Made by a program: the position numbers and the translations under genes. The notes under the pieces are model-generated. The model was given only the letters and a program-made list of their open reading frames with translations. It had not been told where the DNA came from and searched no databases. From the NCBI GenBank assembly GCA_963668175.1, contig OY764159.1, forward strand, positions 3,136,001 through 3,200,000: a stretch of DNA of 64,000 nucleotides. Direction: 5' to 3'. Positions 3,680 through 54,941 of the stretch are shown piece by piece. The first letter of the stretch is position 1, and every line of letters starts with the position of its first letter. The stretch is from Syntrophales bacterium. GTDB lineage: Bacteria; Desulfobacterota; Syntrophia; Syntrophales; PHBD01.

Positions 3680-3947
3680 GGTCTTCTTTCCTTTCGTTCA
3701 GGGAGATGCGCCGCAATCATAGCCCCGTTCGCCGGAAAAGTCATGTTGAAAGAGATTGCCGCGCCCTGCAGCCGTTACAGGCTCAAATTCGACTGATATA
3801 GAAATTCCCCGAAATTCGGATTGGACGGCCGGACGGAATCCTGTATAATATGAAGATGATCGGGCCGGAGATCGGAACGCCGCCGCACGCGCGGGCGTTC
3901 CGTCCCGGATCGAAGCCTTCGCCAATCTCTCTATCGGGGGAAACGAT

Positions 3948-5147: not shown

Positions 5148-8100
5148 ATGAAAAAGATACCCTCCAAAATGCCCAAAAGACCGCAAGCACATAGAATTGG
5201 TGACCGTGCAGTTAAAGAATTTAAACAAAAAAGTTCTGACTTCTGGGCTATTACAGAATCTGAAAACGATTACGGATGGGACTTAATCATTACAATTAGT
5301 GAATCTGAAGAAGTTAAAGACGATTTCTTCGTTCAAGTCAAAGGCTCTAATTCACCAGACTATATTAATAATCAGAAGTATATCAGCGTGAATCTCAACG
5401 GGAGTACGGTAAACTGGCTGTTGTCTAAGCCTATGCCAACAATGCTATGCATATGTGACACTTCTAAAAAGGGTAAACCAGTCTTTTATACTTGGATTCA
5501 AGAAGATATAAAGAGGATTGCCAAAAATAACCCAAAATGGGAAGAACAGGAGAATTTGGTATTTCATATACTTGTCTCCGAAGAATTATGCGAAGAAAAC
5601 TATAGTCAAATTGAAACTTATGTAAAAGAGTTTTATGAAAACTTAAAAATATCAGCTGCAATTGGAGATATATTACGACCGAGTTTCGGTTACAAAGGCA
5701 ACACTGCCCTTTCAGCCTACACGCAAGAAACAGAACAACATCTTCTTGAAAATATTCCTACTTCTATGAAGGAAACCGGTATCTTTGATGTTTCCGCAAA
5801 CAAGGTACATGGAAGTCGGTTACATGTCCTGTCAGCTCTTGATCAAAAGCTCTTCAAGGAAATCAAAAAATCATCAGAAGCTTTAAAGGAAATGAGATCG
5901 GATAAGGCTAGAGAAATCATCTCGGAGATTGAGGAAGAAATTAAATTAGCCTCACATGTTATCCAAGCACGATTTCATAACAACCTAGGAGTATTGTATT
6001 TACAATCTAGGTCTGAAGAAATGGCTTTGAGAGCATTTCGAAAGGCCAACAAGTTATGTCCCAATGATTTAAAATATCAAACAAATATTTTGATGACAGA
6101 ATACATTCTTCTGACAAAAAGTTCAGATAAAACAAAAGAAGTTTTAATTGGAAGTAATTGGCATAAAAAACTAAATAAAATATTTTCCAAAGATCGTGAA
6201 TTCGCAGGCATTGTTCGTCTGAAGGCAATATCAATTGGCAAAGAAATAAATGCTCAAGCAGCTGAAGACTATATCAGGGCCCAGAAAGTATGGAAAGAAG
6301 AACCAATCGCCGCGCGGTGTGAATTGGCAGATCTTTACAAGGACGAAGGTGATTGGGATAATGCGATAAGGGTACTCAAAGAAGTTGAACAACAAGCGAT
6401 GGGACTTGATGGCTTATACTGGAACTTATACGGAATCTGTATGCTACAAAAAGCATTAGGAGGCATCGGATGGCACGCGTTGAAAGGTATTCACGGGACA
6501 GGACCGAGTCAATTAAATATCAATGACTTAAAGAAATCCGAACAATGCTTGATTAAATCATGCAAGGAATTTGAACAAGTCGGTTTTCCACCACTATCAA
6601 GTATACCAATTATCAATCTCGTAGCCGTTCAGCGTATATTGGGCCACGCACATGACGCTGAGCAATATTGCAGGTCCTTTTTGAGGAAATACCCGAATCA
6701 CGCGGGCGTGGCTGGCGCTATAGCCACATGCGCGATAATGAAAGATGATTTTTCTACAGCTACAACATATTCAAAAATAGCTTATGAGGCGCAGCAAGAT
6801 GATTCATTAGCTTACCGAAACTACATGCTCTGTCTATTCTTATCAGATGACGCAGATGCGCTCATAGAATTGATACTCAAACGGCAAAAGATAGGCTTTT
6901 CAGATTCTAAGGAAAAATCAATATCATTATCTCTTTATGCAACTGCACTCAATGAAATCGGCCGCATTGATGATGCAAAAAAACAAATTAACATCATGAA
7001 GACAAACCCAGAAATGCTCGATGATGCATTCGTGGCTGAAGCGGCTATAGCGCGTAGCAATGGGATGTCAAGAAAAGAAATCAAGCAAATATTTATAGAA
7101 GCTTTAAATTCTAATCCGAAAAGCTCAATTCTTTTAACACATTATTTCGATTGCCTTGCCCCGTCGGAACCCGATGACTCCGGAGAACTCATTAATATTA
7201 TTTCACTCTTAGCAAATAATCGACAACTGTCGCCGTTAGAAGCTTATACTCTCGGCATTTGTTATATGACACTCAATAACGCAGAAAAAGCACTTGAAAT
7301 CTTCGGAAAAGGCAGCGAGAGGTTTCCGGAAGAGAGTAGATTCTTATATGGACAGGCAAGGGCTTTATCACTGCTCGGTAATGATGAGGAAGCTTATTCT
7401 GTTTTGAAGAAATATTTCGATTTAGGGAAAAAGGATTATGCTGTTATAAAAAATTTAGCCATAATGGCGATGGAGACGGGAAGACTTAATGAAGCAATCA
7501 ATTTATTTCAAAAAGCAATTTTAAAATCTCAGAATGCCGATGAACGCGGCGATCTTCATAATCAGTTGTGGGAACTTAAAAGAAGGCGAGGTGATCCGTC
7601 GAAAGAAGTAATACGTCATATTATTGAATATGGCAAAACAACCGGTAATAACCCTGAAAAAGAAGCTCGCTTTCTTATAATGGCTCTTCTATCACCATAT
7701 GGTGAAACGGATGAAGAAGAAAAAGATTGGAATAATGAAATTAGAAGGAGAATTAAGAATTTTTCACAAAATCATCCACGGTTTCCTGTGTTCACTACTT
7801 TTGATATTCCATCAAATCTTTCAAGTGAAGAGTTGGGAAATTACATAATGGCTCAAATCGCCGCAGTGATGCTTCCCAGACAACTTGCTACTGCGCCTTT
7901 GGAGATTGCAACTCGTTCAGTTCCATTTCCTCTGGTTTTCAGAGCTCATTTATTACCTTCTTATGGATCAACATTTAGTTATTGGTCTCATTGCATTTCA
8001 TCAAAAGAATTTTCATCGGCAATACATATCTTTGGTGATTTTAACTCATTAGCGCGAGAAATAGATTATTCATCGAAAACATCCACTATATGTATTGATT

Positions 8101-9254
8101 TGACGGCGCTTCTAACTCTTGCAGAACTAAATCTTCTGAGTCTATTAAAAAATAGATTTTCATTAGTAGTGATCACACGTGGCACGAAAAGATCTATCGA
8201 ACATCAATTATTTCGAGCAGAACCTCCACATCCACTGGCTGTTAAAATCGAAAGATGGAGGCAAGAAAATCGGTCGATCATTCGGATAAGAAATATTCCA
8301 GAAAGCGAAGGACTCGATAAAAATGATCCTGAAACTTACAGAGATTATGTAAGGGATCGAAGTGGCATTTTCCTGAGAAAAGAACCCCCCGTTAATATTT
8401 TAATTGGAGATGGTGTAGGCGAGAGCCTCCTGCTTGCGAATCAGTTAAACATACCTCTTTATTCAGACGAATCCTATATCAGGAATTTGGGCTATGATAA
8501 TTATAGAGTCAAATGTCTATCGACTATCTCGCTCATAAGAAAATTGAGAAATGAAAAGATAATCTCAATACATGATGAAACGATAATCTTCTGTGAAATG
8601 ATAAGGAAAAATTTCAGAGTTGTTCCTTTTGATAAGGATCATTTAAATTCCTCTCTTGAATTTTTATTAACGAAAATGACGAAGGAAAAGAAATTATTAC
8701 CTGGAAAACAAGCGCTATTGGACGATGAGAACCTTGGACTTCTATTGAAACAATTCGGTGATCCATTTTTTAATGAAGCATGGCTAGTGAAGATAGCAGT
8801 ATCCTGGTGGTTATCTATGATAGAAGAAAATACTATCAATGATAATATTCTGACATACTGTATCGAGTATCCAAGTTATGCTTTGTCGATGAGGCATACA
8901 GGATATGCTATTATGAAAGGTTTCAAGAAGAATGAGCAAGAAAATAGACTCGCCCATATTTTTGCGTATTTCTTAGTCCAGACATGCGAACTCGTACAGC
9001 CTCCTATTCGCAAGGTATGGTCATATATAAAAACTTGTTGCGAACAAATATTTTCTTCCAATCAAAAAAAATACACGACAACGCTTTTCGAAATATTGCC
9101 ACGATGGATTTCTTCTGAATTAAACAATAACAGAACTATTAATAACGATGTTAAGTTGTTTAGATTCTTTTTAATTTCAAGTTCCTTTCCTGAAGGAGAT
9201 AGATCACAATTCGATGAAATAGTTAAGAAATATCCCCCCGCATTTATGTCATAA
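5148..9254 (+). CDS. DUF4365-like PD-(D/E)xK nuclease + TPR repeats + C-terminal PIN domain protein (candidate anti-phage defence)
   Basis: N-terminus has HRIG...NDYGWD...FFVQVKG. Middle has TPR-like helices (ARFHNNLGVLY, LFQKAI). C-terminus has PIN-like CIDLTALLTL...GESLLLANQLNIPLYSDE. Much more AT-rich than the flanks. Confidence 0.75.
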   Translation: MKKIPSKMPKRPQAHRIGDRAVKEFKQKSSDFWAITESENDYGWDLIITISESEEVKDDFFVQVKGSNSPDYINNQKYISVNLNGSTVNWLLSKPMPTMLCICDTSKKGKPVFYTWIQEDIKRIAKNNPKWEEQENLVFHILVSEELCEENYSQIETYVKEFYENLKISAAIGDILRPSFGYKGNTALSAYTQETEQHLLENIPTSMKETGIFDVSANKVHGSRLHVLSALDQKLFKEIKKSSEALKEMRSDKAREIISEIEEEIKLASHVIQARFHNNLGVLYLQSRSEEMALRAFRKANKLCPNDLKYQTNILMTEYILLTKSSDKTKEVLIGSNWHKKLNKIFSKDREFAGIVRLKAISIGKEINAQAAEDYIRAQKVWKEEPIAARCELADLYKDEGDWDNAIRVLKEVEQQAMGLDGLYWNLYGICMLQKALGGIGWHALKGIHGTGPSQLNINDLKKSEQCLIKSCKEFEQVGFPPLSSIPIINLVAVQRILGHAHDAEQYCRSFLRKYPNHAGVAGAIATCAIMKDDFSTATTYSKIAYEAQQDDSLAYRNYMLCLFLSDDADALIELILKRQKIGFSDSKEKSISLSLYATALNEIGRIDDAKKQINIMKTNPEMLDDAFVAEAAIARSNGMSRKEIKQIFIEALNSNPKSSILLTHYFDCLAPSEPDDSGELINIISLLANNRQLSPLEAYTLGICYMTLNNAEKALEIFGKGSERFPEESRFLYGQARALSLLGNDEEAYSVLKKYFDLGKKDYAVIKNLAIMAMETGRLNEAINLFQKAILKSQNADERGDLHNQLWELKRRRGDPSKEVIRHIIEYGKTTGNNPEKEARFLIMALLSPYGETDEEEKDWNNEIRRRIKNFSQNHPRFPVFTTFDIPSNLSSEELGNYIMAQIAAVMLPRQLATAPLEIATRSVPFPLVFRAHLLPSYGSTFSYWSHCISSKEFSSAIHIFGDFNSLAREIDYSSKTSTICIDLTALLTLAELNLLSLLKNRFSLVVITRGTKRSIEHQLFRAEPPHPLAVKIERWRQENRSIIRIRNIPESEGLDKNDPETYRDYVRDRSGIFLRKEPPVNILIGDGVGESLLLANQLNIPLYSDESYIRNLGYDNYRVKCLSTISLIRKLRNEKIISIHDETIIFCEMIRKNFRVVPFDKDHLNSSLEFLLTKMTKEKKLLPGKQALLDDENLGLLLKQFGDPFFNEAWLVKIAVSWWLSMIEENTINDNILTYCIEYPSYALSMRHTGYAIMKGFKKNEQENRLAHIFAYFLVQTCELVQPPIRKVWSYIKTCCEQIFSSNQKKYTTTLFEILPRWISSELNNNRTINNDVKLFRFFLISSSFPEGDRSQFDEIVKKYPPAFMS

Positions 9255-9401: not shown

Positions 9402-10625
9402 CTACACTTCCGGCAGCCCTTTCACCGCCGTAAAGAATTTTCTGAACGGCTGGTAGATGTCTTTCGCGAGGGTTTGGCGGGCGGGGTCCCGGCTTTGCCG
9501 CCAGGCCGCAAGCGCTTCTCCGGCGGTGCTCGCGGCTTTCGCAGATTCAACATACGTCGCCGCCGCAACGGCGGGCCTGTCGTTTCCGTCCAGCAGTTTT
9601 TCAAACCTGCCGCTTATATCGTCGAAGTAATCCTTTAAATCCTTTCCTTCGATCTTTTCGGGCGGCCGGTCCGTCCGGTCGACCTCGACGCTTTTGATCT
9701 CGCCCGGCGCTGCGCTTGCAAAGGCCGCCAGCACCGGGATGACGGCGTCGAGCACGCCCGGCAAGAGCCCTGCGGACTCCAGGCTGACGGCGATCCTGTC
9801 CGGGCTTTTCTGGACGATGTACCGGTCCCCCAAGGTTTGGGACAGAGCCCGCTCGACGGGGAAGAGGTGCCCCCAGCGTCCGTTGGCGAACACGACGGCG
9901 ATCTGCTCGCGCCGCTTGCTTTTCAGGTCGGCCAGATAGGCGACGACCGCTCTCCCGTTCGCCTTGACAAGCTCCGGGGGAACGTTGACCAGGGGGTTGC
10001 CGTACATTTCGATGGTGACGATGTCCGTGAGGTTGCCGATTTCCAGCGGAAGCTCCGCAAGTCGGTTCTTGGGGAGGCGGAGCCTGTTGAGATTCGTGAG
10101 CCTGCCGAACTCCGGCGGCAGCGCCTCGATCCGGTTCGTGCCGAGGTCGAGCTCGATGAGCTTCGTGAGATTCCCGATCTCCGGCGGAACGGTTTCGATC
10201 CGGTTATAGCCGAGGTGAAGCCCCGTGAGGTTTGCGAGGTTGCCGATCTCCGTCGGGATCGCCTCGATATGGTTGTTGTTGAGGTAAAGCGCCGTCAGCT
10301 TTTCGAGGCCGCCGATCTCGGGCGGGATCGTCCCGATCCGGTTGTTGCCCAGATCCAGCACGGCAAGATTTTTGAGGCCGCCCAACTCCTTCGGAATCGC
10401 CTCGATATGGTTCCCGCCCAGGTACAGGTCGGTCAGGTTCTTAAGATTCGCGATTTCCGGAGGGATCGCCGTAATCGTGTTCCAGCCGAGCTTGAGGGTC
10501 GTCAGCTGCGTGAGCGCGCACAGCTCCGCCGGGAATTCCGTCAACTGCTGGCCGTAAAGGGATATGGCCGTCGCCCCTTCGCTGCGGGCCTTGTCGATTA
10601 GTTCGAGAAGATCTTTTTTCTCCAC
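9402..10625 (-). CDS. leucine-rich repeat protein with an unknown C-terminal domain
   Basis: About 8-9 tandem 23-aa LRRs (LxxLxLxxNxIxxIPxEIGxL), closed by GNPLVNVPPEL; GTG start. Confidence 0.9.
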   Translation of the reverse strand: MEKKDLLELIDKARSEGATAISLYGQQLTEFPAELCALTQLTTLKLGWNTITAIPPEIANLKNLTDLYLGGNHIEAIPKELGGLKNLAVLDLGNNRIGTIPPEIGGLEKLTALYLNNNHIEAIPTEIGNLANLTGLHLGYNRIETVPPEIGNLTKLIELDLGTNRIEALPPEFGRLTNLNRLRLPKNRLAELPLEIGNLTDIVTIEMYGNPLVNVPPELVKANGRAVVAYLADLKSKRREQIAVVFANGRWGHLFPVERALSQTLGDRYIVQKSPDRIAVSLESAGLLPGVLDAVIPVLAAFASAAPGEIKSVEVDRTDRPPEKIEGKDLKDYFDDISGRFEKLLDGNDRPAVAAATYVESAKAASTAGEALAAWRQSRDPARQTLAKDIYQPFRKFFTAVKGLPEV

Positions 10626-10795: not shown

Positions 10796-11371
10796 CTATC
10801 TGCACAGAATGTAATCCCGAACGGCGGGATCGTCGATGACCTGCCGCGTCACCGTATGAATGGCGTAAGCCGCCGCAGTGATACCGCTTATCGCATTATC
10901 CCTGGACTCGTAAGATTTGCTGAAATTCTTCTCCGGGATCGCCACGTTCATCTTATAATAACTTCCGAAGCTCCAGACTCCGGAGACGGACTTAATGTCC
11001 GACAAACTTATCCGGATAACCTTCGAAGATTTGACATCGCTGCGGATATTGCTCCGCTCGTAATTCTTCGCCATGTACAGGGCGACACTGTCCATCAAGT
11101 CCTTGGGAATGATACTGTTGGTAAAGGGCGGTTGTTCGATCGCGTCAAAGTCGTCCGTGCGCGTTTCCGCATTCTCTATCCTTACCGTCGGCGGCTCCTT
11201 GCATTTCGACAGGGAAGAAAGGTCTTGCACCTTCAGATTGTAACTTTTGTACAAATCGTCGATATCCAGCGTCTCGCTGATCGCCTTCGTGAAATGTTGC
11301 GCACAGCCTTGCAGAGAACAGAACAACAGAACGACAAACATACCGAATCCCATCTTGAAAAAAGGTTTCAT
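10796..11371 (-). CDS. hypothetical lipoprotein (paralogue of 11423-12001)
   Basis: Lipobox LQGC; C-terminus QVIDDPAVRDYILCR is shared with the neighbour. Confidence 0.7.
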   Translation of the reverse strand: MKPFFKMGFGMFVVLLFCSLQGCAQHFTKAISETLDIDDLYKSYNLKVQDLSSLSKCKEPPTVRIENAETRTDDFDAIEQPPFTNSIIPKDLMDSVALYMAKNYERSNIRSDVKSSKVIRISLSDIKSVSGVWSFGSYYKMNVAIPEKNFSKSYESRDNAISGITAAAYAIHTVTRQVIDDPAVRDYILCR

Positions 11372-11422
11372 CTTTATCCCCCCATTAAATATTGTTCGTA
11401 TGAACTCCGAATATGCTCGGCC

Positions 11423-12001
11423 TCACCTGCAAAGGATATAATCCTGGATGACCGGGTCGTTGATGACCTGCCACGTTGCGTCGTGGACCGCATAGACCAG
11501 CGCCCAATAAAGGTCCCCGGACGACTGCGACGCATAAAACGTGAACGTCTGCTGTTTTTCCGGGAGGAACACGTCGAGCTCGAGGTTGGCCGTGCTGTTG
11601 AACTTGAAGGCGCTGTTGGGGATTCCCTCGACTTTCCTGATGGATATCCGGAGCGTCTTCTTCGACTGCGGATTGTTCAGCACCCGGCATTGCCGGTAAT
11701 TGTCCCCGAGGAAATTGACGATGTGGCCCGTCAGTTCCCGCGGATTCTGCAGCCAGGACGGGCTGTACACCGCGCCGGGTACGATGTTGACGTCCTTGTC
11801 GGCCGTCTCGGCATTGACGAGATTGACGGCGACCTCGTCCGCGCATTTCGCTTTCTCCTTCAGGTTCGGGGGCTGCGTTCCGAACAGGTAACGTACTTCG
11901 GATGGACGCATGCTCCTGTTGACGTCCTCCTTGAAAGTCCTCTGAGCGCCGCAACCGGCCAGCATGACGATGCACAATACGAACAGAGACAGCTTTTTCA
12001 T
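11423..12001 (-). CDS. hypothetical lipoprotein (paralogue of 10796-11371)
   Basis: MKKLS...LAGC lipobox; C-terminus QVINDPVIQDYILCR. Confidence 0.7.
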   Translation of the reverse strand: MKKLSLFVLCIVMLAGCGAQRTFKEDVNRSMRPSEVRYLFGTQPPNLKEKAKCADEVAVNLVNAETADKDVNIVPGAVYSPSWLQNPRELTGHIVNFLGDNYRQCRVLNNPQSKKTLRISIRKVEGIPNSAFKFNSTANLELDVFLPEKQQTFTFYASQSSGDLYWALVYAVHDATWQVINDPVIQDYILCR

Positions 12002-12343
12002 TTTCCCCCCCATGAATGCGTTAGGAAATCCTATATCTTCCCCGCCGGTCCGAAAACGGCCGACGGGTCTTCCTTCGATGACTGTTTGACACTATTGCGT
12101 ATATATGCATGAAAAACGGAGCCAAGTAAAAGGTAATTTTCCATATTTACCGATATTACAGCGATGTATTATCATTTATTACAATTCATATCGTTACACT
12201 ATATTGACACTTGCTGCATTTTATGTTCTCTGTCGATTAAACTTATATTTTTTGGGCAGTTTCGATTGCGCGTCGCGTCACGGACGGCAGGGATTTCCTG
12301 TTCGATGATCATTTAACACTTCAACATTCCAGCGGGGGGCGGC

Positions 12344-13793: not shown

Positions 13794-13819
13794 CGTCGAC
13801 CGCATTTGACGCATCATGC

Positions 13820-13860
13820 CGATGAGGCCGCAGTGTGCATATACACTTACGGCCTCATCG
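13820..13860 (+). terminator. stem-loop after the cytochrome gene
   Basis: cgatgaggccg...cggcctcatcg 11-bp stem with an inner agtgt/acact pair and a T-rich tail nearby. Confidence 0.55.
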
Positions 13861-13992
13861 TGTTCATTTTTTCACTTCGCTGCCGCCATTTGCGCTGTCA
13901 ACCCATTTCGGCGCGCCACCCGGCACTTGACACAAATCCAACTGGCTGTTAAGATTACTCTATCCAATGTTCATGTATCCTGTGAGGTGACG

Positions 13993-16287
13993 ATGAGACG
14001 AGGGTTGTTGTATGCGGCCATGATTCCTATCCTTTTCTGGTGCATTCTTGCGGCTGCTGCTGGTGCGACGGACCGTCTGCCGCCGCCTGATTTTCCGCTC
14101 ATGGAGGCGGTCAAAAAGGGCGACGCCAAGAACGTCCGGAGCCTCCTTGAAAGCGCATCTTTTAATAAGGCCGATATAGACAGGAAGGGTATAAGCGGCG
14201 AAACGGCCCTCACCGTCGCCGCCGGGGACGGCAACCTTGAAATCGTTCAGCTTCTCGTGGAACACGGCGCCGCGGTCGATGCGGGGAAAGACGGAGCAAG
14301 AACGCCGCTGATCGAGGCTTCCGGCCAGGGATACGTCAAGATCGTCCAATACCTCATCGAAAAAGGCGCCGACGTCAACGCGAGGGGCGGCGGCATTACG
14401 GCTCTCCTTGCGGCGAGCCGCAACGACGTCTTCCCTTTCAAACCCAAAGGCAACAGGAAGCGGACGATGGCGGCTCTCCTTTCGGCCGGCGCGGATGTCA
14501 ACGTACAGGACGAATCGTGGATGAAGACAGGCCGGACGCCCCTCATGTTCGCCGTAACGCAGGGGGATGCCGCCGCGGTGCAGAGCTTCCTCGCCAAAGG
14601 TGCGAAACTCGATGTAAAAGACAGCAACGGTGACACGGCCATGGCCATCGCCAAGGAGGCCCGGCTTGAATATATCGTATCGCTTCTCGAAAAGGCGGAG
14701 AAGGGACCTATTGAAGCGCCGCCCGCCGGCCCCGAACTGCCGCCTATCTTCGATGCCGTCAGGGAAAACAGTCTGAGCAAAGTGAAAGCCCTCCTCAAGG
14801 GCGGAGAGGATGTCGACCGGCGGACCCCCAGCGGCAGCACGCCGCTGATGTTTGCGGCGGACGGCGGCAATGCGGAAATCGCCCGGTATCTCATAAAAGA
14901 AGGCGCCGACGTCAATGCCGGAAACGGCATGAACAACACGGCGCTCATCTTCGCGGCGACCAAGGGCCATGCCAACATTGCGGCCGATCTCCTGCGGAAG
15001 AAGGCGGACGTCAACGCCCGGAACCTAAGCCGCGGCGACGCCCTGATCTATGCCGTGATCCATAACAAGGCCGACGTCGTCCGCATCCTTTTGAAGAGCG
15101 GCGCCGATATCGACCGCACCTATGACGACGGCAAGACGGCCCTCATCGCGGCCGTGGCCGAAGGCAACGAGGGTATCGCCCGCCAACTCATCGCCCGCGG
15201 GGCGGAAATCGATGCGGCCGACAGGAACGGCGTCACCGCCCTGATGGTCGCCTCCATCAAAGGCCAAGCGGAAATGGTCGATGCGTTCATTAAGGCCGGG
15301 GCGGATGTCCATATCAAGGACAAAAACGGGGAGACGGCCCTGGACAAGGCCGTGGCGGCCAACAGGCTCCCGATCGTCAAGAGACTGGCAGACGCGGCCG
15401 GACGCACCGGCCGGGAGCAGGCCCTCTTCGCCGCCGCCGGCAACGGCAACATGGAGATCGTCAAGCTTCTTCTGACCCGAGGCGTGGACGTGAACTCCGC
15501 AGGGCCCGGCGGGGAAACGCTCCTGATGCGGGCGGCCGCGGCGGACGACGACATGGTGAAGTATCTCGTCGGAAAGCACGCGGATGTCAACAGCCGCGAC
15601 TACGAAGGGAACACCGCCCTCATCAAAGCGGCAGGTTCTTTCTACAGCACCGCCGGCGTGACGGTCAGGTATCTCCTGGAGAACAGCGCCGATCCCAACG
15701 CGGCAAACAAGGACGGCGAGACGGCCCTGATCCTGGCGGCGAAAAGGGGCCGCATGGTTATGGCGGAAATGCTTCTCGACAAGAACGCTGCCGTCTTCCC
15801 GAAAGACAAGGCGGGCAAGACGGCCCTTGTCTATGCCATGGAAGGGGGCTATAACGACATCGCGGCTCGCCTGACCAAAGCAGGCGCAGCCAGAGATTAT
15901 AAGGGGATGAAATGGTCCGCTTTCGTCTCGAAGCAGAAGGAGCCGTTTATCAAGGTCGTGGACAATGCACAGGAATGGCATGCCCTCTGGAGCCGCGCCC
16001 TCGAAAAAACCGCGCCGGACATCGATTTCGACAAGTACGTTGTGGCCTGTGTCTTCCTGGGTTACTACGCAAAGTGGCTTTACGCCATCAACATCGGCGA
16101 ACCCGTCATGGAGGACGGCCGGATGGTCGTGCCCTACGGCCTTTTAGATATTGAATTGCGGCTTTCCGGCCCCTTCGAGGCCTCCGGGCAGTACGCCATG
16201 AAGGTCCTGGAGAAAAAACCGGGCGTATCGTACGTCGTGGAAGAGCGGCCTGCGCGGACTCGGCGGCACCCTCCGGCGCTCCGTTGA
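13993..16287 (+). CDS. exported ankyrin-repeat protein with a C-terminal PrcB-like domain
   Basis: Signal peptide from MRRGLL (RBS gaggtg). More than 15 GxT(A/P)LxxA...GADVN repeats. C-terminal EWHALW...PDIDFDKYVVACVFLG. Confidence 0.85.
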   Translation: MRRGLLYAAMIPILFWCILAAAAGATDRLPPPDFPLMEAVKKGDAKNVRSLLESASFNKADIDRKGISGETALTVAAGDGNLEIVQLLVEHGAAVDAGKDGARTPLIEASGQGYVKIVQYLIEKGADVNARGGGITALLAASRNDVFPFKPKGNRKRTMAALLSAGADVNVQDESWMKTGRTPLMFAVTQGDAAAVQSFLAKGAKLDVKDSNGDTAMAIAKEARLEYIVSLLEKAEKGPIEAPPAGPELPPIFDAVRENSLSKVKALLKGGEDVDRRTPSGSTPLMFAADGGNAEIARYLIKEGADVNAGNGMNNTALIFAATKGHANIAADLLRKKADVNARNLSRGDALIYAVIHNKADVVRILLKSGADIDRTYDDGKTALIAAVAEGNEGIARQLIARGAEIDAADRNGVTALMVASIKGQAEMVDAFIKAGADVHIKDKNGETALDKAVAANRLPIVKRLADAAGRTGREQALFAAAGNGNMEIVKLLLTRGVDVNSAGPGGETLLMRAAAADDDMVKYLVGKHADVNSRDYEGNTALIKAAGSFYSTAGVTVRYLLENSADPNAANKDGETALILAAKRGRMVMAEMLLDKNAAVFPKDKAGKTALVYAMEGGYNDIAARLTKAGAARDYKGMKWSAFVSKQKEPFIKVVDNAQEWHALWSRALEKTAPDIDFDKYVVACVFLGYYAKWLYAINIGEPVMEDGRMVVPYGLLDIELRLSGPFEASGQYAMKVLEKKPGVSYVVEERPARTRRHPPALR

Positions 16288-23559: not shown

Positions 23560-24972
23560 CTATTTTCGTGCAGGCGTATCGGGGATTTTGGCGCCCAGCG
23601 ACTTGACCAGTCGCTGAAAGTTCTCGTCGGCATACAGAATCCTGCCGGCGGCATCCCCCAGGCGGTCGATCTGGTCCTCCGACAATCTCAGGGACGTGGG
23701 AATCTTGTGGAAATATTCCCGTTCGTCCTTGTCCGGCAGGGCTTCGAAGGTCACGTGGATGATGTAGAATTCGATGGGGACGATGCCCTTGGTCTTGTCA
23801 AGGTAGGTCCAGTCCCGGGCATAGCGGTGCAGCAGCTCGATCGTCTCGAAGTTATATTTATTGACCATGATCGTCGACGAGGCATCGAGAATCATCGCGA
23901 GCCCCGGTATCTCCTTCAGAAGCCGCCAGCTGGACGTTTCCTGCGTCTGGGCGTCGACGATGAGGAACACCACCTTCTCTGTTTTGTCGAATCCAGTCTC
24001 CTTGAGAAGATCGCGCGCATCGCCCCGGATCATCATGGCTTCCAGCGGACCCCGAACGCCCAGATTGTCCGACACCCCGCCGTCCACAAGGTAGATATAC
24101 GGTTTCGTCTGGGGATTCATGTATGTGTTGAGGCGTACCGCGTTGTAGTAAACGCGGCTTGCCATGTCGGGTTTTTCCAGGGCCTTCCGCATCCACTCGG
24201 GATGTTCGGCGCTGCGGCATTGTCCCGCATAATTCTTGAGGGCGATGGGCGAAAAAGCCCCGGGAAAAGCGGCGGAAGCGGCTACGGCACGGGCAACGGG
24301 AAATTGATCGTAGTCGGAACACAGAAGCGAAAACAACCCGGGTGAGAAGCTGAAGATAAAACCGTCCGCCACGTCCGTGGCCATGATCAGCACGGCCGGG
24401 CCGTCCCCCCGGGCCAGGTCGCCAAGAGTGGCGCCGTGGAACAGGTTAGCGTCGTAGTATTCCGCCGCCAGGTCGCTGCGGCCGTAAAAGGGCGACCCGA
24501 TCGCAAACCAGTTGATGGGATTGAACAGACGCCAGAGCAGCGCCGACTGATAGTCCTGCGTCAGGAAATTCTCCCGGTAGTCTTTGAAGATGCTTTTACC
24601 GTGCAGGCCGTAATAGGCCGCCGTAAAACTGCCGCCCGAGACGCTGGAGATGAGATCGACTTCGTCGAGGAGCGTATGTCGTCCTCTGTTGGCGTCCGTT
24701 TGGAGCGGGTCCGGCGGCATCTCGATCCGTTCCAGGGCCTCCAATACGCCGTAGGAAAGGGCCGCGGCCCTGCTGCCTCCGCCGGAAAACGTCAGAAAGA
24801 AGAGGAGCGACGGGGACCGGTCGCGGGCGATGATCTTCGCAAGAACGGGGTCCGCTGGACCGCGCTGCGGCGGAGCGGAGGTCTTGGGGTTGAGGGGAAA
24901 TTGGGCGGTGCATCCCGCAAGAAGAAGGATGCCGATAAAGACGGAAAGAAGTACCGATGCCTTGCAAGGCAT
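23560..24972 (-). CDS. patatin-like phospholipase, lipoprotein
   Basis: Lipobox LLAGC; SGGGSRA, SSVSGGS (nucleophile) and DGG motifs. Start uncertain (24972 or 25017). Confidence 0.8.
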   Translation of the reverse strand: MPCKASVLLSVFIGILLLAGCTAQFPLNPKTSAPPQRGPADPVLAKIIARDRSPSLLFFLTFSGGGSRAAALSYGVLEALERIEMPPDPLQTDANRGRHTLLDEVDLISSVSGGSFTAAYYGLHGKSIFKDYRENFLTQDYQSALLWRLFNPINWFAIGSPFYGRSDLAAEYYDANLFHGATLGDLARGDGPAVLIMATDVADGFIFSFSPGLFSLLCSDYDQFPVARAVAASAAFPGAFSPIALKNYAGQCRSAEHPEWMRKALEKPDMASRVYYNAVRLNTYMNPQTKPYIYLVDGGVSDNLGVRGPLEAMMIRGDARDLLKETGFDKTEKVVFLIVDAQTQETSSWRLLKEIPGLAMILDASSTIMVNKYNFETIELLHRYARDWTYLDKTKGIVPIEFYIIHVTFEALPDKDEREYFHKIPTSLRLSEDQIDRLGDAAGRILYADENFQRLVKSLGAKIPDTPARK

Positions 24973-25278
24973 TGCACCGTTCTTGTGTCGGCGGGGCTGC
25001 GTCTGTCTTCGGAACATACCGCCACTCCTTGACGGTCCGCTTGAAGGGCATCGGCCCGGACGAGTATGCACAGCGTTGCATCCTCCCGCATCTTGCCATC
25101 ACCGGCACTCAGGCGGGCACGGCTGAGCATTCACGCCGGTGCGGGCGGCAGGTCATTCCGGTATTGTCGACACGGACCTGTTCCGGACGGCCCCCGCCCT
25201 TTTCGCTTCGCAAGGAATTCACAGCGTCGAACGGATGGCAGACAAACCGAATCAATGGGGCTCCCCGTTCGGCGCCGT

Positions 25279-49107: not shown

Positions 49108-49187
49108 TGATATTAAAGGTATACGTATGCCGTTGTATGGCGTAAACCGTCTTTTTTGAAGATACGTTATAAAAAGGAGGTATGAAC

Positions 49188-49628
49188 ATGTTCGGATTAA
49201 GAACGGGAAGATTCGGAGTCGATACGTTGAGGGAACTGCAGAATCTGCAGAGGGACATCAACCAGGCATTTTCGGGAATAAGTCCCCTGCCGGCGGTGCG
49301 CCAGTATCCGGCCCTCAATGTGTGGGAAAGCGGCGGAGAGCTGATCTTCACGGCCGAGTTGCCTGGCATTGACCCTGAGAAGCTGGACATCTCCGTCGTC
49401 AACGACACCCTGACCCTGAAGGGCACCAGGGATCATGTGGCACTCAAGGAAGGAGAAGCCTTTCACCGCCAGGAACGCAGCACGGGGCGATTCTCCCGAA
49501 CGGTCGGCCTGCCGTTTACGGCCGATGCCGCCAGGGTCAACGCCGTCTATAAGAAAGGCATCCTGACGATTACGGTGCCGAGGGCGGAGAAGGAAAAGCC
49601 CAAAAAGATAACGATCAGTACCGAATAG
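49188..49628 (+). CDS. Hsp20/alpha-crystallin small heat-shock protein
   Basis: YPALNVW, AELPGID, FSRTVGLP and YKKGILTITVP motifs. Start 49188 is favoured by RBS spacing. Confidence 0.93.
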   Translation: MFGLRTGRFGVDTLRELQNLQRDINQAFSGISPLPAVRQYPALNVWESGGELIFTAELPGIDPEKLDISVVNDTLTLKGTRDHVALKEGEAFHRQERSTGRFSRTVGLPFTADAARVNAVYKKGILTITVPRAEKEKPKKITISTE

Positions 49629-49644
49629 AGAGGAGGCATGAACC

Positions 49645-50049
49645 ATGGCACAGGAAGCGAAGGAAACCGCCAAACAGGAAGTGCAGCAACCGTCGGGCAC
49701 GGAGCGCACGAGGACAAAAAAGGTCTACGTGCCGGAGGTGGATATATACGAGACGAAGGACAGCATTGTCCTGATAGCGGATTTGCCGGGCGTGGACGAG
49801 AAATCCGTGGACATCGTCCTTGAGAAGAACGTCCTGACGATTACGGGTGCGGCCGGGCCGGTTGCGTATCCGGGCTATAGCGTGACGTACTCCGAATACG
49901 ATACGGGCGACTACCAGAGGGCGTTCACGATAAGCGATGAAGTCGACCGCGACAACATCGACGCCGCCGTCAAAAACGGCGTCCTTACGATAACGCTCCA
50001 CAAAGCGGAGAAGGCCAAGGTCAAGAAGATCTCCGTAACGACTCATTAG
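49645..50049 (+). CDS. Hsp20/alpha-crystallin small heat-shock protein
   Basis: PEVDIYE, ADLPGV, YQRAF and NGVLTITL motifs. Confidence 0.93.
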   Translation: MAQEAKETAKQEVQQPSGTERTRTKKVYVPEVDIYETKDSIVLIADLPGVDEKSVDIVLEKNVLTITGAAGPVAYPGYSVTYSEYDTGDYQRAFTISDEVDRDNIDAAVKNGVLTITLHKAEKAKVKKISVTTH

Positions 50050-50124: not shown

Positions 50125-50309
50125 GTCTCTCAGGTTAATTGAAGCGAAAAATCAGGTTTTTCCCGATTGCACGGCAAGGGAATCATTTCTTATGGTTTAT
50201 TGTGTTATGCCTGTGAGAACAGACTTCCCCGGGCAACACGCCGTTCGAGGCAGGCAGGACATCTTCAAATCCCGCCCGCGCCGTCATCTCAGGTAAGGAG
50301 ACCTTCGCT

Positions 50310-51704
50310 ATGTCCGAGTTGATTGTCATCACGCCCGACGACGTTTATAACAGAGTCCGAACGGGGACAGCCCTCCTGGTCTGCGCCTACGACGAGGAAG
50401 AGAAGTTCCTGAAAATCCGCCTCGAAGGTGCGATTTCCCTCAAGGAGCTGGAAGCGCGCCTTCCCGATCTTCCGAAAGACCGGGAGATCGTTTTCTATTG
50501 CGCCTGACCGGAGCAGGCCACTTCCGTCCGTCGGGCGGAGCAATACCAAAAGCTCGGGTACACGGCCGTCAAGATATTGCGGGGCGGGGTGAAGGCATGG
50601 GAGGCGGCCGGACTTCCGCTGGTTCCCCAGGAGAAATCCGCTCCGAAAGCGCCCTCGAAGCAGGAACGGAAAGCGGCGGCACGCAGAAACGGAGAGAAAA
50701 AGAGCATCAATCTGGCCCTGCAGGGAGGCGGCACGCACGGCGCATTCACCTGGGGCGTCCTGGACCGCCTCCTGGAGGACGACCGCATCCATATCGAGGC
50801 CATCAGCGGCACCAGCGCCGGGGCGATAAATGCGACGATTATCGCGGACGGCCTCATGGAAAGCGGCAGGGAGGGCGCCCGCCGGGCCCTGGAAGGATTC
50901 TGGTGGTCCATCAGCCATGCGGCGCAGTTCAGCCCCATCAAGCGGACGCCCCTGGACGTCCTCACGGGCAACTGGAACCTGGACCGTTCGCCCAGCTATC
51001 TCTTCTTTGAAGTGATGGAACAGCTTGCCTCCCCCTACCTTCTGAATCCGCTCAACCTCAACCCCATAAAAACGCTGCTCGCCAGGCAGGTCAATTTCGA
51101 ACGGGTCCGCCAGTGCGACGTGATGAAGGTCTTTATCTCCGCGACCAATGTCCGCACAGGCCGGGTGAAGCTCTTCGAACGGACGCAATTGACCCTGGAC
51201 ATGGTCATGGCTTCCGCCAGCCTCCCCTATCTCTTCCAGGCGGTGGAAATCGACGGCGAGGCTTACTGGGACGGAGGCTACTCCGGAAACCCCGTTCTCT
51301 ACCCCTTTGCCTACCAGTGCACGTCCAAGGACGTCGTAATCGTCCAGATCAACCCCATGTGCAGGAATACCGTCCCCAAAACGGCCCATGAAATCCTGAA
51401 CCGGATCAACGAGATCACATTCAACGGTTCGCTCATGAAGGAACTCCGGGCCATCGAATTTGTCGGCCGGCTCCTCGATTCCGAGAGTGTGGATCCCGTC
51501 CGCTACAAGAAGATGCTCCTCCATGTGATCAACGCGGAAGAGGAACTCAAATACTTTAACGCTTCCAGTAAATTCAATGCGGAATGGGGTTTCCTGACCC
51601 ACCTGCGGACACTCGGCCGCCTGGCGGCGGAAAAATGGCTGGATGCGAACTACGACGCGATAGGCAAACGGTCGTCGGTGGATCTGCGCTCGCTTTTCGA
51701 ATAA
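50310..51704 (+). CDS. predicted selenoprotein: rhodanese-like domain (Cys-Ala-Sec) fused to a patatin-like phospholipase, 464 aa
   Basis: ORFs 50310-50507 and 50577-51704 share a frame. Reading through TGA 50505-50507 gives IVFYCA-U-PEQATSVRRAEQYQKLGYTAVKILRGGVKAWEAAGLP, completing a rhodanese domain, then GGGTHG / GTSAG / WDGG patatin motifs. Confidence 0.8.
50508..50540 (+). promoter_or_regulatory. candidate bacterial SECIS element
   Basis: Hairpin ttccgtcc-GTC-gggcggag (50522-50540); the apical loop starts with G-U, 23 nt after the UGA. Confidence 0.65.
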
Positions 51705-51708
51705 ACCG

Positions 51709-52686
51709 CTAGGAACGATCCTCTTTGAAGATGGCCGCCATCTTCTTTTCGTGCCAGCAGTTGAAGGGAATGGTCTTGAAAAAGCCGCAGTGCCCCCCGT
51801 ACTTCTGGATGGCAAGCGTCAGGTTTCTGCTTCTCCCGAGACCGCGGATATCTTCGATAGGAACAACCGGATCGTCCTCGGCGGCAATGATGGTCACCGG
51901 GACATCGAGGTCCCCGAAGACATCGCCCAAGAGCGTATACCGGCTGAAGTAATCCCGGAAATCATCGAACTCGGGATAATAGGCCATGACGGCCTCGGTC
52001 ATCCCCAGGCAGGTCTTCATCCGGAGGACCTCGTCGAATTGGTACCGCTCGGGGAAAAGTTCCTGCTTCGTCCGGAGGGAGCGTTTCCACTTCCACAGGA
52101 AATGATAGCGGTATCCCCTGAATCCGTTGTCGATAGCGACGGTGGCCTTGTACGGGTCCAGCGCCGGGCTTATGGCGACCACGTGTCGCAGGTTGTCTAT
52201 CTTCACATGGGAATGGCGAAGGGCGATGCGCAGCGCGAAGTTCGCCCCCAGGGAAAAACCCGCCAGATAAAAGGGACGGGACGGGGCGATGCCGGCCACG
52301 GCGCGCACGGCGGTGAAGGTTTCGTCAAGGAGGGCGCCGTGAAAAAGCCCGGCGTTCAAGTCGTGGCTCGGACCGTGGTCGCGCAGGTTCAGCCTGAAAA
52401 CGTCGTAACCCCTCCCGTAGAGATACTCGCCCGCCGAGACGACGTAGGCCGAATCGGCGCTGCCTTCCCAACCGTGAATAATGGCCACCGTTCCCGCCGG
52501 CTTGATGTGGCGATGCTTCGAATAGATCCCTAACAGGCGGACGCCGCCTCCGGCCTGGACGATCATCCCCCTGGCCGATTCCTGCATCCCGTTTCCCCGG
52601 AGCTTCCGGAGGCGGGAAGAGGCAAAAATGGTCTGCAGGTGGCGGTTCCGGGACCCGTGCCGGGGTGTCAGGTTTTCTTCCGTCAT
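51709..52686 (-). CDS. alpha/beta hydrolase (YheT-like esterase)
   Basis: HLQTI, HGWEGS, GFSLG, DDPVVP and GGHCGF motifs. Confidence 0.88.
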   Translation of the reverse strand: MTEENLTPRHGSRNRHLQTIFASSRLRKLRGNGMQESARGMIVQAGGGVRLLGIYSKHRHIKPAGTVAIIHGWEGSADSAYVVSAGEYLYGRGYDVFRLNLRDHGPSHDLNAGLFHGALLDETFTAVRAVAGIAPSRPFYLAGFSLGANFALRIALRHSHVKIDNLRHVVAISPALDPYKATVAIDNGFRGYRYHFLWKWKRSLRTKQELFPERYQFDEVLRMKTCLGMTEAVMAYYPEFDDFRDYFSRYTLLGDVFGDLDVPVTIIAAEDDPVVPIEDIRGLGRSRNLTLAIQKYGGHCGFFKTIPFNCWHEKKMAAIFKEDRS

Positions 52687-53480
52687 GGCTTCACCGCATA
52701 TCCCAGGTAGGCAATGATTTTATGGCTTCCAACGCGCATATCGAGTTTCTCCGCCAGTTCGCGGTGGCGTATTTCTCCCCTCAGCCGCTTGCGGAGAAAC
52801 CGGAAAAGGGTGACGGGGTTGCCTCCGGGGAACCATCCCCGCAGTTCGGCAAGGTCGAATCCGTTTTCCGCCAGGGCCCGTTTCAACTCCTCCGGTTTGA
52901 TGAACTTCTTCCAGAAGTGAAGGTCGCGCTCCATGAAGGCCGTGTATTTCCATTCCTGGAGAAGCTTTATCATAAAAAGCCAGCTTAGAAAATTGCGATT
53001 TATCGTTTCGAAAAAGAAAAGCCCCCCCGGCCTCAGCACACGGGCGATTTCGGCCGTGACGCGGTAGTAATCGCTCACATGCTCGAGGACGTCGCAGCAT
53101 AAGACCGCATCGAACGATGCCGCGGCGAAGGGGAGCGCTTCACCCGCGCCCTGCAGATAACGGATCGCCAGGGAGGACCGCCGGGCATGCGCCAGGGCCG
53201 TTTCCAGGGATTTGTGGACGGGATCGAGTCCCGTAACGGAGAACCCCTCTTTGGCAAACTCCTCCGCGAGATAGCCGCCGCCGCACCCGATGTCCAGGAT
53301 TTCCCGGAAAGCCTGCGGCCTTCCGCCATATCGGCCGATGATGCCGCGATAATAGCGGAAGCGGGGCCGATTCACGCCGTAGCGCAGGGACGAGAGGGAA
53401 CCGGCTTCGTCATCGTCCCACCAGGCATCGCCGATGCGTTCGAAGACGTCGTTTTCGGATGGAGAAGGGCGGAGAGCCAT
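52683..53480 (-). CDS. UbiG-like SAM-dependent O-methyltransferase
   Basis: WWD, LDIGCGGG, CDVLEHV, ETINR and KFIKPEEL motifs. Confidence 0.85.
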   Translation of the reverse strand: MALRPSPSENDVFERIGDAWWDDDEAGSLSSLRYGVNRPRFRYYRGIIGRYGGRPQAFREILDIGCGGGYLAEEFAKEGFSVTGLDPVHKSLETALAHARRSSLAIRYLQGAGEALPFAAASFDAVLCCDVLEHVSDYYRVTAEIARVLRPGGLFFFETINRNFLSWLFMIKLLQEWKYTAFMERDLHFWKKFIKPEELKRALAENGFDLAELRGWFPGGNPVTLFRFLRKRLRGEIRHRELAEKLDMRVGSHKIIAYLGYAVKP

Positions 53481-53481
53481 A

Positions 53482-54045
53482 TCACCCGGGAAACCGCGCA
53501 TTAAGCAGGCTTGAGCCGTATACGCCCAGAAAAACTCCTGACAGGAGCCCCAAACCGCTGAAGCCGATCATGGCCGCGATATAAACGAGTCCCTCCGGCT
53601 CACGCGCTGCTTGCGTGAGAAACAGGAGGGCCAGCGAAGCACCGAAAAAGACTACCCCGAGCACGATCTTTTTCTTCAGAATCGGCGTCGTGTACCTCCG
53701 GAAGCGGATTTTGCCGTCGAGCAGTCCCGACAGAATGGCGGCAGCAAGCGTAAAGGGGAGGCAAAAAGCCATTACCCTGATCGTCGTGAAGAGGTCCCCC
53801 CGGAGCGTCCAGGGAACGAGGGGAAGACAGAGGGAGAAAAGGAACAGAAGCGCGCCGAGAGCCTGGGGAATATGGACGACGATCGGGTGGAGATGCCTGT
53901 CCAGAATCCATTTTCTCTTTTCCGAGATGTTGTCGGTGAATGCCTCGAACATCTTGCTCGGCACCCCGCAAGCAGGGCAGACGTCTTCGACTTTGTCGGC
54001 CTCCATAATAAAACCGCAGGCCTTACAGCGAACGAGGGATTTCAT
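53482..54045 (-). CDS. rubredoxin-like domain fused to a four-TM (DUF2231-like) membrane domain
   Basis: CKACG...CPACG N-terminus, then HPIVVH followed by TM helices. Confidence 0.75.
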   Translation of the reverse strand: MKSLVRCKACGFIMEADKVEDVCPACGVPSKMFEAFTDNISEKRKWILDRHLHPIVVHIPQALGALLFLFSLCLPLVPWTLRGDLFTTIRVMAFCLPFTLAAAILSGLLDGKIRFRRYTTPILKKKIVLGVVFFGASLALLFLTQAAREPEGLVYIAAMIGFSGLGLLSGVFLGVYGSSLLNARFPG

Positions 54046-54071
54046 AGTTCCTCCATAAATATAAAGGTTGT

Positions 54072-54941
54072 TTACTTCATGTTCATCACATAAAACAAGG
54101 CAAAAAAGATATTAAGACAGGTGGACGAGACGAGATTGAGCTTCATGGTCGAGCGGTAATTGGCCCGCGCTTCATTCCTTAATACCTTGAAAAACCAGAC
54201 ATTGAAATAGACGAGGACCGGTGCCTGGACGGCAAGGAAAAGCAGAGCGAACATCATCCGGAAATGGGTATGGTAGTAAAGGGCGAAACCGCCCATCACC
54301 ATCACGAAGAAGATGGCCGAAAAGGCGAAGGTGCCCCGGATGCCGAGAAGGATGCTCAGCGTGATATCCCCCCTGCGGCGGTCTTCTTCATGCTGATAGA
54401 CCTGGGTCATGGGATAGGCCGCCATAAGAAACGCCGAGGAGAGCAAGGCCGGAATCAGAACGCCTTTCCCGGCAAGATCGCCGACGGTCACATCGTTGAC
54501 GGCATAATAGCTTATGAGGAAGACGAACGCCCCCTGAAACGCAACGACCCCGATCCAACTTACGACAGGCAACTTCTTGATACGGATCTTCGTATAACTG
54601 TATGCCTTCGACCCTAAACCGAACACGAAGACGGCCAGGGCGACCCGCCAGTCGATGCACAGACCGAGCATGACGGCAAAGGAATCGAAGGCCAGCGACG
54701 CCCATAGCAGTTCGTCGCTTACGGGCGGCGGGTGTTCGATGCCGCCGATGCTGCCCGTATCGCGGTCGTAGTAGGAATTGAAGCCGTTGGTCGCCGGAAA
54801 GAGAAAAAGGTGGAGGATGACGAACATCAGCCAGACGCGCCACCAATCGGGACTGCTGCTCAAGCTGACGGCGAAAAAGAAGATCGGAGACAGATAGTAG
54901 GAGAAAGGGATTCGGAGATGAATCAGCGTCGATCTTTTCAT
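54072..54941 (-). CDS. UbiA family prenyltransferase
   Basis: Multi-TM protein with NSYYDRD and QHEEDRRRGD acidic motifs and YS...RIK. Confidence 0.8.
   Translation of the reverse strand: MKRSTLIHLRIPFSYYLSPIFFFAVSLSSSPDWWRVWLMFVILHLFLFPATNGFNSYYDRDTGSIGGIEHPPPVSDELLWASLAFDSFAVMLGLCIDWRVALAVFVFGLGSKAYSYTKIRIKKLPVVSWIGVVAFQGAFVFLISYYAVNDVTVGDLAGKGVLIPALLSSAFLMAAYPMTQVYQHEEDRRRGDITLSILLGIRGTFAFSAIFFVMVMGGFALYYHTHFRMMFALLFLAVQAPVLVYFNVWFFKVLRNEARANYRSTMKLNLVSSTCLNIFFALFYVMNMK

Follow-up and report, generated by a model that had tools for sequence, protein, structure and literature searches.

A probable selenoprotein gene in a Syntrophales bacterium that joins a Cys-x-Sec rhodanese domain to a patatin-like phospholipase

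The DNA analyzed here, referred to as the window, is a 64,000-nucleotide stretch of a Syntrophales bacterium genome (assembly GCA_963668175.1, contig OY764159.1, positions 3,136,001 to 3,200,000 of the forward strand). Between positions 50310 and 51704 its plus strand carries two open reading frames (ORFs) that share the same frame. The first (50310-50507) starts with ATG and encodes 65 amino acids (aa) with the C-terminus ..EIVFYCA, and the second (50577-51704) starts with TTG and encodes 375 aa. As a preliminary description of this locus had claimed, and as translation bears out, the sole stop between them is the TGA at 50505-50507; its next base is C, and it is kept in a related Smithella locus described below. 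If this TGA is read as a codon for selenocysteine (Sec, U), the two ORFs merge into one coding sequence; it has 464 codons, with UGA as codon 66, and ends at a TAA stop (51702-51704). The putative product, assigned from the translation, Pfam matches and the Smithella locus, consists of a rhodanese domain with a Cys-x-Sec (CxU) motif, a linker and a patatin-like phospholipase domain. The ATG at 50310 is preceded by a Shine-Dalgarno-like AAGGAG at 50295-50300, 9 nucleotides (nt) upstream. For the TTG at 50577, no motif comparable to AAGGAG could be read from the sequence 5' of the start, in agreement with the earlier remark that the patatin ORF taken alone lacks an evident ribosome-binding site. 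Furthermore, the earliest in-frame ATG of the patatin part corresponds to residue 183, which is located C-terminal to the catalytic Ser169.

The N-terminal 105 residues (50310-50624, plus strand) make up the rhodanese domain, as identified by Pfam, AlphaFold2 and Foldseek. The Pfam match (PF00581) places residues 8-99 on positions 1-101 of the 102-position profile with a score of 40.0 bits (cut-off 22.2) and spans the TGA. It is made complete by the read-through segment PEQATSVRRAEQYQKLGYTAVKILRGGVKAWEAAGLP, so that the earlier proposal of a rhodanese domain completed by read-through is confirmed. The best NCBIfam match of the read-through product, at a score below the family cut-off, is NF041203 (rhodanese_LYCAU, 'rhodanese-related (seleno)protein'), and the Cys-x-Sec motif of that family (YCAU) is present as FYCAU at residues 62-66. 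Modeled alone in AlphaFold2 with Cys at position 66 and 58 homologues, residues 1-108 reached a mean predicted local distance difference test score (pLDDT) of 94.8 and a predicted template modeling score of 0.87. In this model, a strand (residues 59-63) leads to the C64-A-U66 loop, and a helix (67-81), a strand (87-90) and a second helix (93-99) follow the TGA. Because two helices and one strand are encoded after the TGA, the 65-residue ORF represents an incomplete fold. Foldseek aligned the rhodanese model to rhodanese structures with template modeling (TM) scores of 0.72-0.77.

The Cys64-Ala65-UGA66 triplet immediately follows the beta-strand that bears the canonical catalytic cysteine. More specifically, FYC aligns with FYC/LYC of structure 6mxv, which identifies Cys64 (TGC, 50499-50501, plus strand) as the canonical rhodanese catalytic residue and substantiates the placement of the UGA in the active-site loop as C-A-U. 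To count residues by column, we used the best 150 of 3089 matches from a profile-free exhaustive search of 1.84 billion representatives; 78 of these 150 have a length of at most 200 aa, and 73 of the 78 carry Cys at the Cys64 column. Canonical rhodaneses have a six-residue loop, C-X5-R/S/T, with basic residues for thiosulfate binding. The loop found here, CAUPEQATS, does not follow this pattern, as it is two residues longer than that of 6mxv, contains a Glu and is devoid of Arg. A further cysteine, Cys25 (50382-50384, plus strand), lies in the motif LLVCAY and is Cys in at least 90% of the aligned family; V24, C25 and A26 form nearly invariant columns of the rhodanese subfamily alignment. Cys25 stands in place of the usual acidic or basic residues of this strand, and it may act together with Cys64 and Sec66 as a third redox partner.

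The rhodanese domain is followed by a Lys/Arg/Pro-rich linker (residues 106-134, 50625-50711) that is poorly conserved, variable in length and of low pLDDT in the full-length model. The patatin-like phospholipase domain (residues 135-329, 50712-51296) matches PF01734 with 87.8 bits (cut-off 27.7), is recovered by Foldseek and reaches pLDDT values above 90 in the full-length AlphaFold2 model. We take the defining patatin motifs to be a GGGx[K/R/H]G oxyanion hole, a GxSxG nucleophile elbow and a DG[A/G] with the catalytic Asp. On an alignment of 27 relatives, the corresponding oxyanion-hole motif GGGTHG (residues 139-144, 50724-50741) is invariant at G139, G140, G141, H143 and G144, and both the GTSAG elbow (residues 167-171, 50808-50822, with Ser169 at 50814-50816) and the DGG motif with Asp321 (residues 321-323, 51270-51278) are invariant. 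Judged from these motifs, the Ser169/Asp321 dyad and the oxyanion hole are intact. The remaining residues, 330-464 (51297-51701), form a mostly helical C-terminal extension that is conserved in the patatin subfamily and has pLDDT values of 85-98 and no separate Pfam match; all of these features lie on the plus strand. Structural matches of the patatin domain in Foldseek include CapV, PlpD, CapE and plant patatin, and the sequence of the patatin part matches PlpD with E = 8.1e-10. Among the Foldseek relatives, the structures of CapV and CapE contain bound cyclic nucleotides, and that of VipD is a complex with Rab5.

The fusion and its TGA were then traced in relatives. A scan of species-representative genomes matched at least 599 stretches, of which 588 were confirmed and the best 80 loci analyzed. 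Just one of these 80 loci, a contig of Smithella sp. (L001), matched residues 1-463. It encodes the same fusion, 68% identical, with a TGA at codon 66 (..IIFYCAUPEQATSVRRAEQYQD..). A local tblastn search with the rhodanese part likewise found a match in only one of the 80 loci, again L001, and hence the stand-alone patatins have no related rhodanese gene nearby; in two further loci (L007 and L010), the region upstream of the patatin gene consists of unrelated sequence with ordinary stops. Between the TGA and the TTG, comparison of the window with L001 revealed 10 identical, 10 synonymous and 3 non-synonymous codons out of 23. This stretch lacks a start codon and therefore must be translated from upstream, and the codon comparison indicates that it is under purifying selection.

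Relatives of the two parts, as delimited by gene callers, break at the same position. For the N-terminal part (108 residues), 102 of 109 candidates were significant, and 99 of these end in [FL]YCA; the other three comprise one ending in FYCN, one ending in ..IIFY and a complete sequence that has Ser at the column. Conversely, 16 of the 120 best patatin matches start within the rhodanese C-terminus (e.g., MTSVRRAEQYQ.., MELGF.., MGYT.., MRGG..), with differing pseudo-starts and none reaching beyond the UGA position. In five cases, an N-terminal fragment could be paired with a patatin on a contig of equal size (3371, 8872, 4646, 21762 and 11106). A patatin tree was built from 120 rows, leaving out P0020 and P0076, in which the anchor motif is missing. 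Of the 18 rows that carry a rhodanese tail, 16 group in one 22-row clade with a support of 97, and P0070 and P0073 fall outside it. None of 500 label shuffles was as clustered as the tail rows. Whether a row bears the tail label depends on the start chosen by the gene caller, and two of the six unlabeled members of the clade belong to the equal-size-contig pairs. The closest named relatives are Smithella, Syntrophales, Syntrophaceae and Desulfomonilia. Homologues with the same fusion and either Sec or Cys at this site had been proposed as a check. The TGA-containing fusion exists in L001 and Cys is present at the column in short homologues, whereas a Cys form of the rhodanese-patatin fusion was not found among 428 candidates, which gave one rhodanese-CBS fusion, and patatin motifs occur in none of the 72 long matches among the best 150 rhodanese matches.

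At the column of Sec66, a residue is present in 64 of the 78 short homologues, and the other 14 lack it through truncation. Cys is the most frequent residue (37), followed by Ser (12), Trp (5), Asp (4), Thr (3), Gly (2) and Leu (1), and the usual Cys forms are FYCACPEQSTS and FYCACPQDETS. Trp at this position had been named in advance as evidence against a selenoprotein, and it does occur in five sequences (P0230, P0153, P0135, P0140 and P0270), although a TGA probably underlies it. In the one cluster examined, that of P0230, 116-aa forms with FYWGWH stem from contigs of 526-1025 base pairs (bp), and the 63- and 71-aa siblings on longer contigs end in ..IVFY, just before the first W. P0153 extends beyond the normal C-terminus via another W. 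Since the P0230 siblings stop exactly there, the W at the column is most likely a TGA that the gene caller read under another code. Two of the five sequences also have Trp at the Cys64 column (FYWGWH, FYWAWP). With W read as TGA, these would imply a possible U-x-U rhodanese variant with two selenocysteines, a form that is absent from the table of rhodanese selenoprotein forms in PMC13188914.

Downstream of the UGA, a hairpin whose apical loop begins with GU had been noted. We located this Sec insertion sequence (SECIS)-like element, UUCCGUCC-GUC-GGGCGGAG, at 50522-50540 on the plus strand; it has an 8-bp stem, its loop occupies 50530-50532, it lies 22 nt after the UGA, and its folding energy is -10.1 kcal/mol. 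For bacterial SECIS elements, the legend of Fig. 2 in a 2026 review (PMC13188914) gives a loop of 3-9 nt whose first two positions contain G, a stem of 4-16 bp, a spacing of 16-37 nt and a minimum free energy of at most -7.5 kcal/mol. In our own contiguous-stem implementation, which is distinct from bSECISearch, the hairpin fits all four published constraints. This answers the earlier suggestion of a SECIS prediction for the UGA region, and the specificity of the result can be read from the 1956 TGA sites of the window, of which 5.5% pass the constraints and 1.5% have a hairpin this stable. This control over all TGA sites was used since z-scores against shuffled sequences were not significant. 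The hairpin in L001 likewise has an 8-bp stem, with a GGC loop, 22 nt spacing and -8.6 kcal/mol, and it differs from that of the window by one compensatory C-G to U-A double change located at two synonymous third positions. Nucleotide identity between the two loci is 84% over the UGA and the following 42 nt, compared to 62% upstream and 60% downstream. In Rfam, the region 50400-50700 matched no meaningful family; two weak hits to long non-coding RNAs (E 0.32 and 3.6) were all that the scan produced. Together, the hairpin and the single compensatory pair, from two sequences, are suggestive of a SECIS. A terminator-like hairpin of 10 bp with a T-rich run at 50465-50490 (plus strand), inside the coding sequence and 5' of the UGA, was also considered and set aside; it is not found in L001 and is probably due to chance.

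The geometry of the two ORFs by itself is not beyond chance, as the window contains 109 TGA triplets that are flanked on each side by 45 or more open codons. What does exceed chance is the homology across the TGA, the retention of this codon in relatives and the agreement of the hairpin with the SECIS constraints. Elsewhere in the window, TGA functions as a normal stop and terminates 14 Pfam-supported genes. The core proposal of the preliminary description, a 464-codon selenoprotein uniting a CxU rhodanese and a patatin, is supported at the level of sequence by the conserved TGA, the truncated relatives, the purifying selection, the Cys-rich column and the hairpin. We consider it very probable that 50310-51704 is one gene with UGA recoding and not two, and we assign a probability of roughly 0.8 to the explanation as a whole, that is, to one recoded rhodanese-patatin gene together with its proposed workings.

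Several observations weigh against this explanation. The score for NF041203 is 55.1 bits, under the cut-off of 115, and covers residues 39-104 on profile positions 56-123 of 126. The Sec66 column is not uniformly Cys, with Ser in 12 and Trp in 5 of the 64 sequences. Covariation in the putative SECIS amounts to one compensatory pair between the two fusion DNA sequences compared, and the folding energy is ordinary relative to shuffles (z = -0.56, -0.04 and +0.25). Full-length AlphaFold2 modeling gave pLDDT values of 27-53 over the rhodanese part and is therefore uninformative on contacts between the domains. The gene context provides no functional clue, because the neighbors differ between the window and L001, where a penicillin-binding protein and a tail-specific protease are encoded upstream and no Hsp20 gene is adjacent. 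Finally, selA, selB, selD and tRNA-Sec are all absent within the 64-kilobase (kb) window. Regarding this last point, selC* tRNA-Cys genes, in each case accompanied by a full selABCD set, are described in passages of PMC5389517 for Syntrophobacterales, Desulfobacterales and a composite Smithella genome, and this report supports Sec competence in the lineage.

The same report opens the question of which amino acid is inserted. The UGA may be recoded as Cys, or as a mixture of Sec and Cys, by a selC* tRNA-Cys and a SelB paralogue, giving a full-length product even without selenium. The selC* genes described in related deltaproteobacterial lineages, including the composite Smithella genome, speak for this possibility (PMC5389517, in the passages concerned), as do the nearest named relatives of the gene, which are Smithella, Syntrophales and Syntrophaceae, and the predominance of Cys at the Sec66 column. 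Within the 64-kb window, however, there is neither a selC* nor any other tRNA gene, and we regard decoding as Cys as unlikely. It is compatible with the gene model and alters only the inserted residue and the degree of selenium dependence.

Two further alternatives dispense with recoding. If the TGA were a true stop, the locus would give a 65-residue peptide, and the patatin would be made independently from TTG 50577 or GTG 50589. Gene callers annotate the relatives in this manner, TTG and GTG are possible starts, and stand-alone patatins of about 345 aa are common in the subfamily. However, the 65-residue piece would lack two helices and one strand of the modeled rhodanese fold, the 23 start-less codons show 10 synonymous against 3 non-synonymous changes, the pseudo-starts differ between relatives (residue 82 in L001, residue 90 here), TTG 50577 has no Shine-Dalgarno sequence, and the first in-frame ATG (residue 183) lies past Ser169, all of which makes two separate products very improbable. 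The TGA could also be a Cys codon (TGC or TGT) that was mutated in a pseudogene or misread during sequencing, given that TGC and TGA differ by one base and complete homologues carry Cys at the column. Against this stand the identical TGA in the independently assembled Smithella genome, the TGA that the truncation of 99 of 102 relatives, drawn from several sources, implies, and the purifying selection on both flanks together with intact catalytic motifs downstream. A pseudogene or sequencing error is accordingly strongly disfavored and, in our judgment, hardly credible.

For the preferred reading as one recoded gene, the following sequence of events can be proposed. Translation would begin at ATG 50310 behind a good ribosome-binding site, UGA-66 would direct the insertion of selenocysteine, presumably through SelB and tRNA-Sec with guidance from the hairpin at 50522-50540, and translation would then run on to the TAA at 51702-51704. 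The 464-residue product would comprise an N-terminal single-domain rhodanese, a basic and variable linker of about 30 residues, and a C-terminal patatin-like phospholipase. Because the patatin part lies downstream of the UGA, the lipase domain would not be made without UGA recoding, and lipase synthesis would depend on the recoding machinery. The Cys-x-Sec pair may close as a selenenylsulfide or carry sulfane sulfur, and the rhodanese domain, as a sensing module for redox state or persulfides, would gate the lipase.

Our leading guess for the function, based on this domain arrangement, is thus a redox- or sulfane-sulfur-gated phospholipase. Gating of the lipase by the rhodanese domain is put forward tentatively, with the odds somewhat against it. 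It finds support in the nearest members of the rhodanese subfamily, which are also fused N-terminally to CBS pairs, in the solved relatives of the patatin fold, which include the cyclic-nucleotide-bound CapV and CapE and the Rab5-bound VipD, and in the long, basic and variable linker. A rather doubtful extension of this idea is that a membrane phospholipase is turned on or off by Cys25, Cys64 and Sec66, acting together as a selenium-based redox or sulfane-sulfur switch. Synthesis of the lipase only when selenium is available would follow logically from the architecture, and is weakened because selC* tRNAs that decode UGA as Cys are reported in related lineages in the passages of PMC5389517 cited above.

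A different function would be that of a bifunctional enzyme for membrane-lipid repair, in which the Cys-x-Sec rhodanese reduces lipid hydroperoxides or acts on sulfur- or selenium-modified lipids and the patatin domain cleaves the damaged acyl chain. The logic parallels that of peroxiredoxin 6, which combines peroxidase and phospholipase A2 activities. Rhodanese domains of this kind are not known to act as peroxidases, which counts against such a role, and so does the long, variable linker, which argues for loosely coupled modules. In its favor, the fusion is kept across a diversified clade, and two Hsp20 stress genes (49182-50049) lie immediately upstream on the same strand in the window, although this adjacency is not kept in L001. 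Sec beside Cys is typical of redox catalysis according to passages of PMC13188914 and PMC9312934 and would fit a repair enzyme. On balance, we consider a bifunctional repair enzyme quite unlikely.

The preliminary description had known of no account of this architecture. Passages of two reviews (PMC13188914 and PMC9312934) list the CxU rhodanese as a predicted selenoprotein family ('form 3', NF041203), so that the Sec-rhodanese part is not new. The patatin fusion, in contrast, was not found described: the word 'patatin' is absent from the main text of both reviews, and no prokaryotic report of a patatin and rhodanese selenoprotein was found in full-text literature searches, as judged by the titles listed. 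Compared with NF041203 (rhodanese_LYCAU, COG0607 form 2), the protein shares the single rhodanese domain, the ..YCAU.. motif and a SECIS hairpin within the coding region. Members of NF041203 are proteins of about 126 residues, whereas the sequence studied here continues from FYCAU into PEQATS and a linker/patatin extension of 360 residues, and scores below the family cut-off.

On the patatin side, stand-alone proteins of about 345 aa, e.g., from Halomonas, Alphaproteobacteria and Syntrophales, carry the names 'NTE family protein' or 'patatin-like phospholipase family protein'. They show 52-70% identity over residues ~130-464 and share the catalytic motifs and the C-terminal helical extension. 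However, they have neither a rhodanese domain nor the UGA, and no related rhodanese was found within 5 kb in 79 of the 80 loci. PlpD (5fqu/5fya), CapV and CapE of CBASS, and plant patatin share the fold and the Ser-Asp dyad (Foldseek E 6e-11 to 5e-8, target-normalized TM-scores 0.49-0.71, identity 13-21%), but none of them has a rhodanese domain or selenocysteine. CapV and CapE bound cyclic nucleotides in their structures, and no such ligand is implied for the protein described here.

Rhodanese domains with a catalytic partner are known from the persulfide dioxygenase-rhodanese fusion (5ve3), the CoA-disulfide reductase-rhodanese fusion and the NADH-dependent persulfide reductase (3icr, 3nt6, 6pfz), with TM-scores of 0.65-0.70. 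In these sulfur enzymes the partner acts in sulfur redox chemistry and the site contains Cys only, whereas the present protein combines a Cys-x-Sec loop with a lipid hydrolase as the partner. The same rhodanese subfamily, 47-48% identical, occurs at the N-terminus of fusions of a CxC rhodanese with a CBS pair (P0123, P0133, P0148, P0195 and P0207), in which the C-terminal CBS pair takes the place of the patatin domain. Other partners of this subfamily are DUF2383 (P0131) and a cupin (P0160).

In the surroundings of the fusion gene, the two Hsp20 small heat-shock genes are arranged in tandem and end 260 nt upstream of it. An antisense ORF of 508 codons (50289-51815, minus strand) spans the entire fusion gene, has no Pfam match and represents a shadow frame. 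A terminator-like hairpin with a T run (51727-51745, plus strand) was found by consensus scan only, 23 nt past the stop and inside the 3' end of the convergent hydrolase gene. That gene belongs to a convergent run on the minus strand (51709-54941) encoding a YheT-like alpha/beta hydrolase, a UbiG-family methyltransferase (146 bits, cut-off 103), a membrane protein with a rubredoxin-like domain and a UbiA prenyltransferase; judged by these families, it looks like a quinone-biosynthesis-like cluster. A second patatin-domain gene (23560-25071, minus strand; 503 aa, Pfam 5.1e-19) appears unrelated and has no NCBIfam match or rhodanese domain.

A search for further selenoproteins in the window read through two of the 109 open-frame TGA sites, and both candidates were rejected. 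At 1869-3716 (minus strand), the stretch upstream of the TGA is rich in Arg, Pro and Gly and has a non-coding appearance. At 10799-12091 (minus strand) lie two tandem paralogous genes, each with its own stop. These two genes are in frame with each other, have about 200 codons and signal-peptide- or lipoprotein-like starts, and each ends in ..DYILCR; an ORF of 418 codons over them (10856-12112, plus strand) has no Pfam match and is probably a shadow. The window further encodes a 1368-aa protein with DUF4365, TPR and PIN-TPR-GreABC-type regions (5148-9254, plus strand), a leucine-rich-repeat protein (9402-10625, minus strand) and an 823-aa ankyrin-repeat protein (13816-16287, plus strand). For a bacterium, such a group of three large repeat proteins is unusual.

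The rhodanese-patatin fusion is real, recurrent and currently mis-annotated. About 100 database entries are recorded as 65-residue proteins named 'hypothetical protein' or 'rhodanese-related sulfurtransferase', and some share of these, together with their patatin neighbors, are probably halves of one selenoprotein gene. The finding adds a hydrolase-linked architecture to the prokaryotic selenoproteome, which is thought, according to passages of PMC9312934, to be dominated by redox proteins. The Cys-x-Sec loop is a plausible chemical switch, and the position of the lipase domain downstream of the UGA ties its synthesis to the recoding machinery. The gene therefore offers a direct way to ask whether lipid hydrolysis in anaerobes is controlled by selenium status or by redox state. 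If the proposed switch holds true, syntrophic anaerobes would couple the remodeling or breakdown of lipids to selenium supply through UGA recoding, and also to oxidative or persulfide stress through the formation of a selenenylsulfide. The protein would then be without precedent among selenoproteins, with Sec controlling a hydrolase instead of performing redox catalysis itself.

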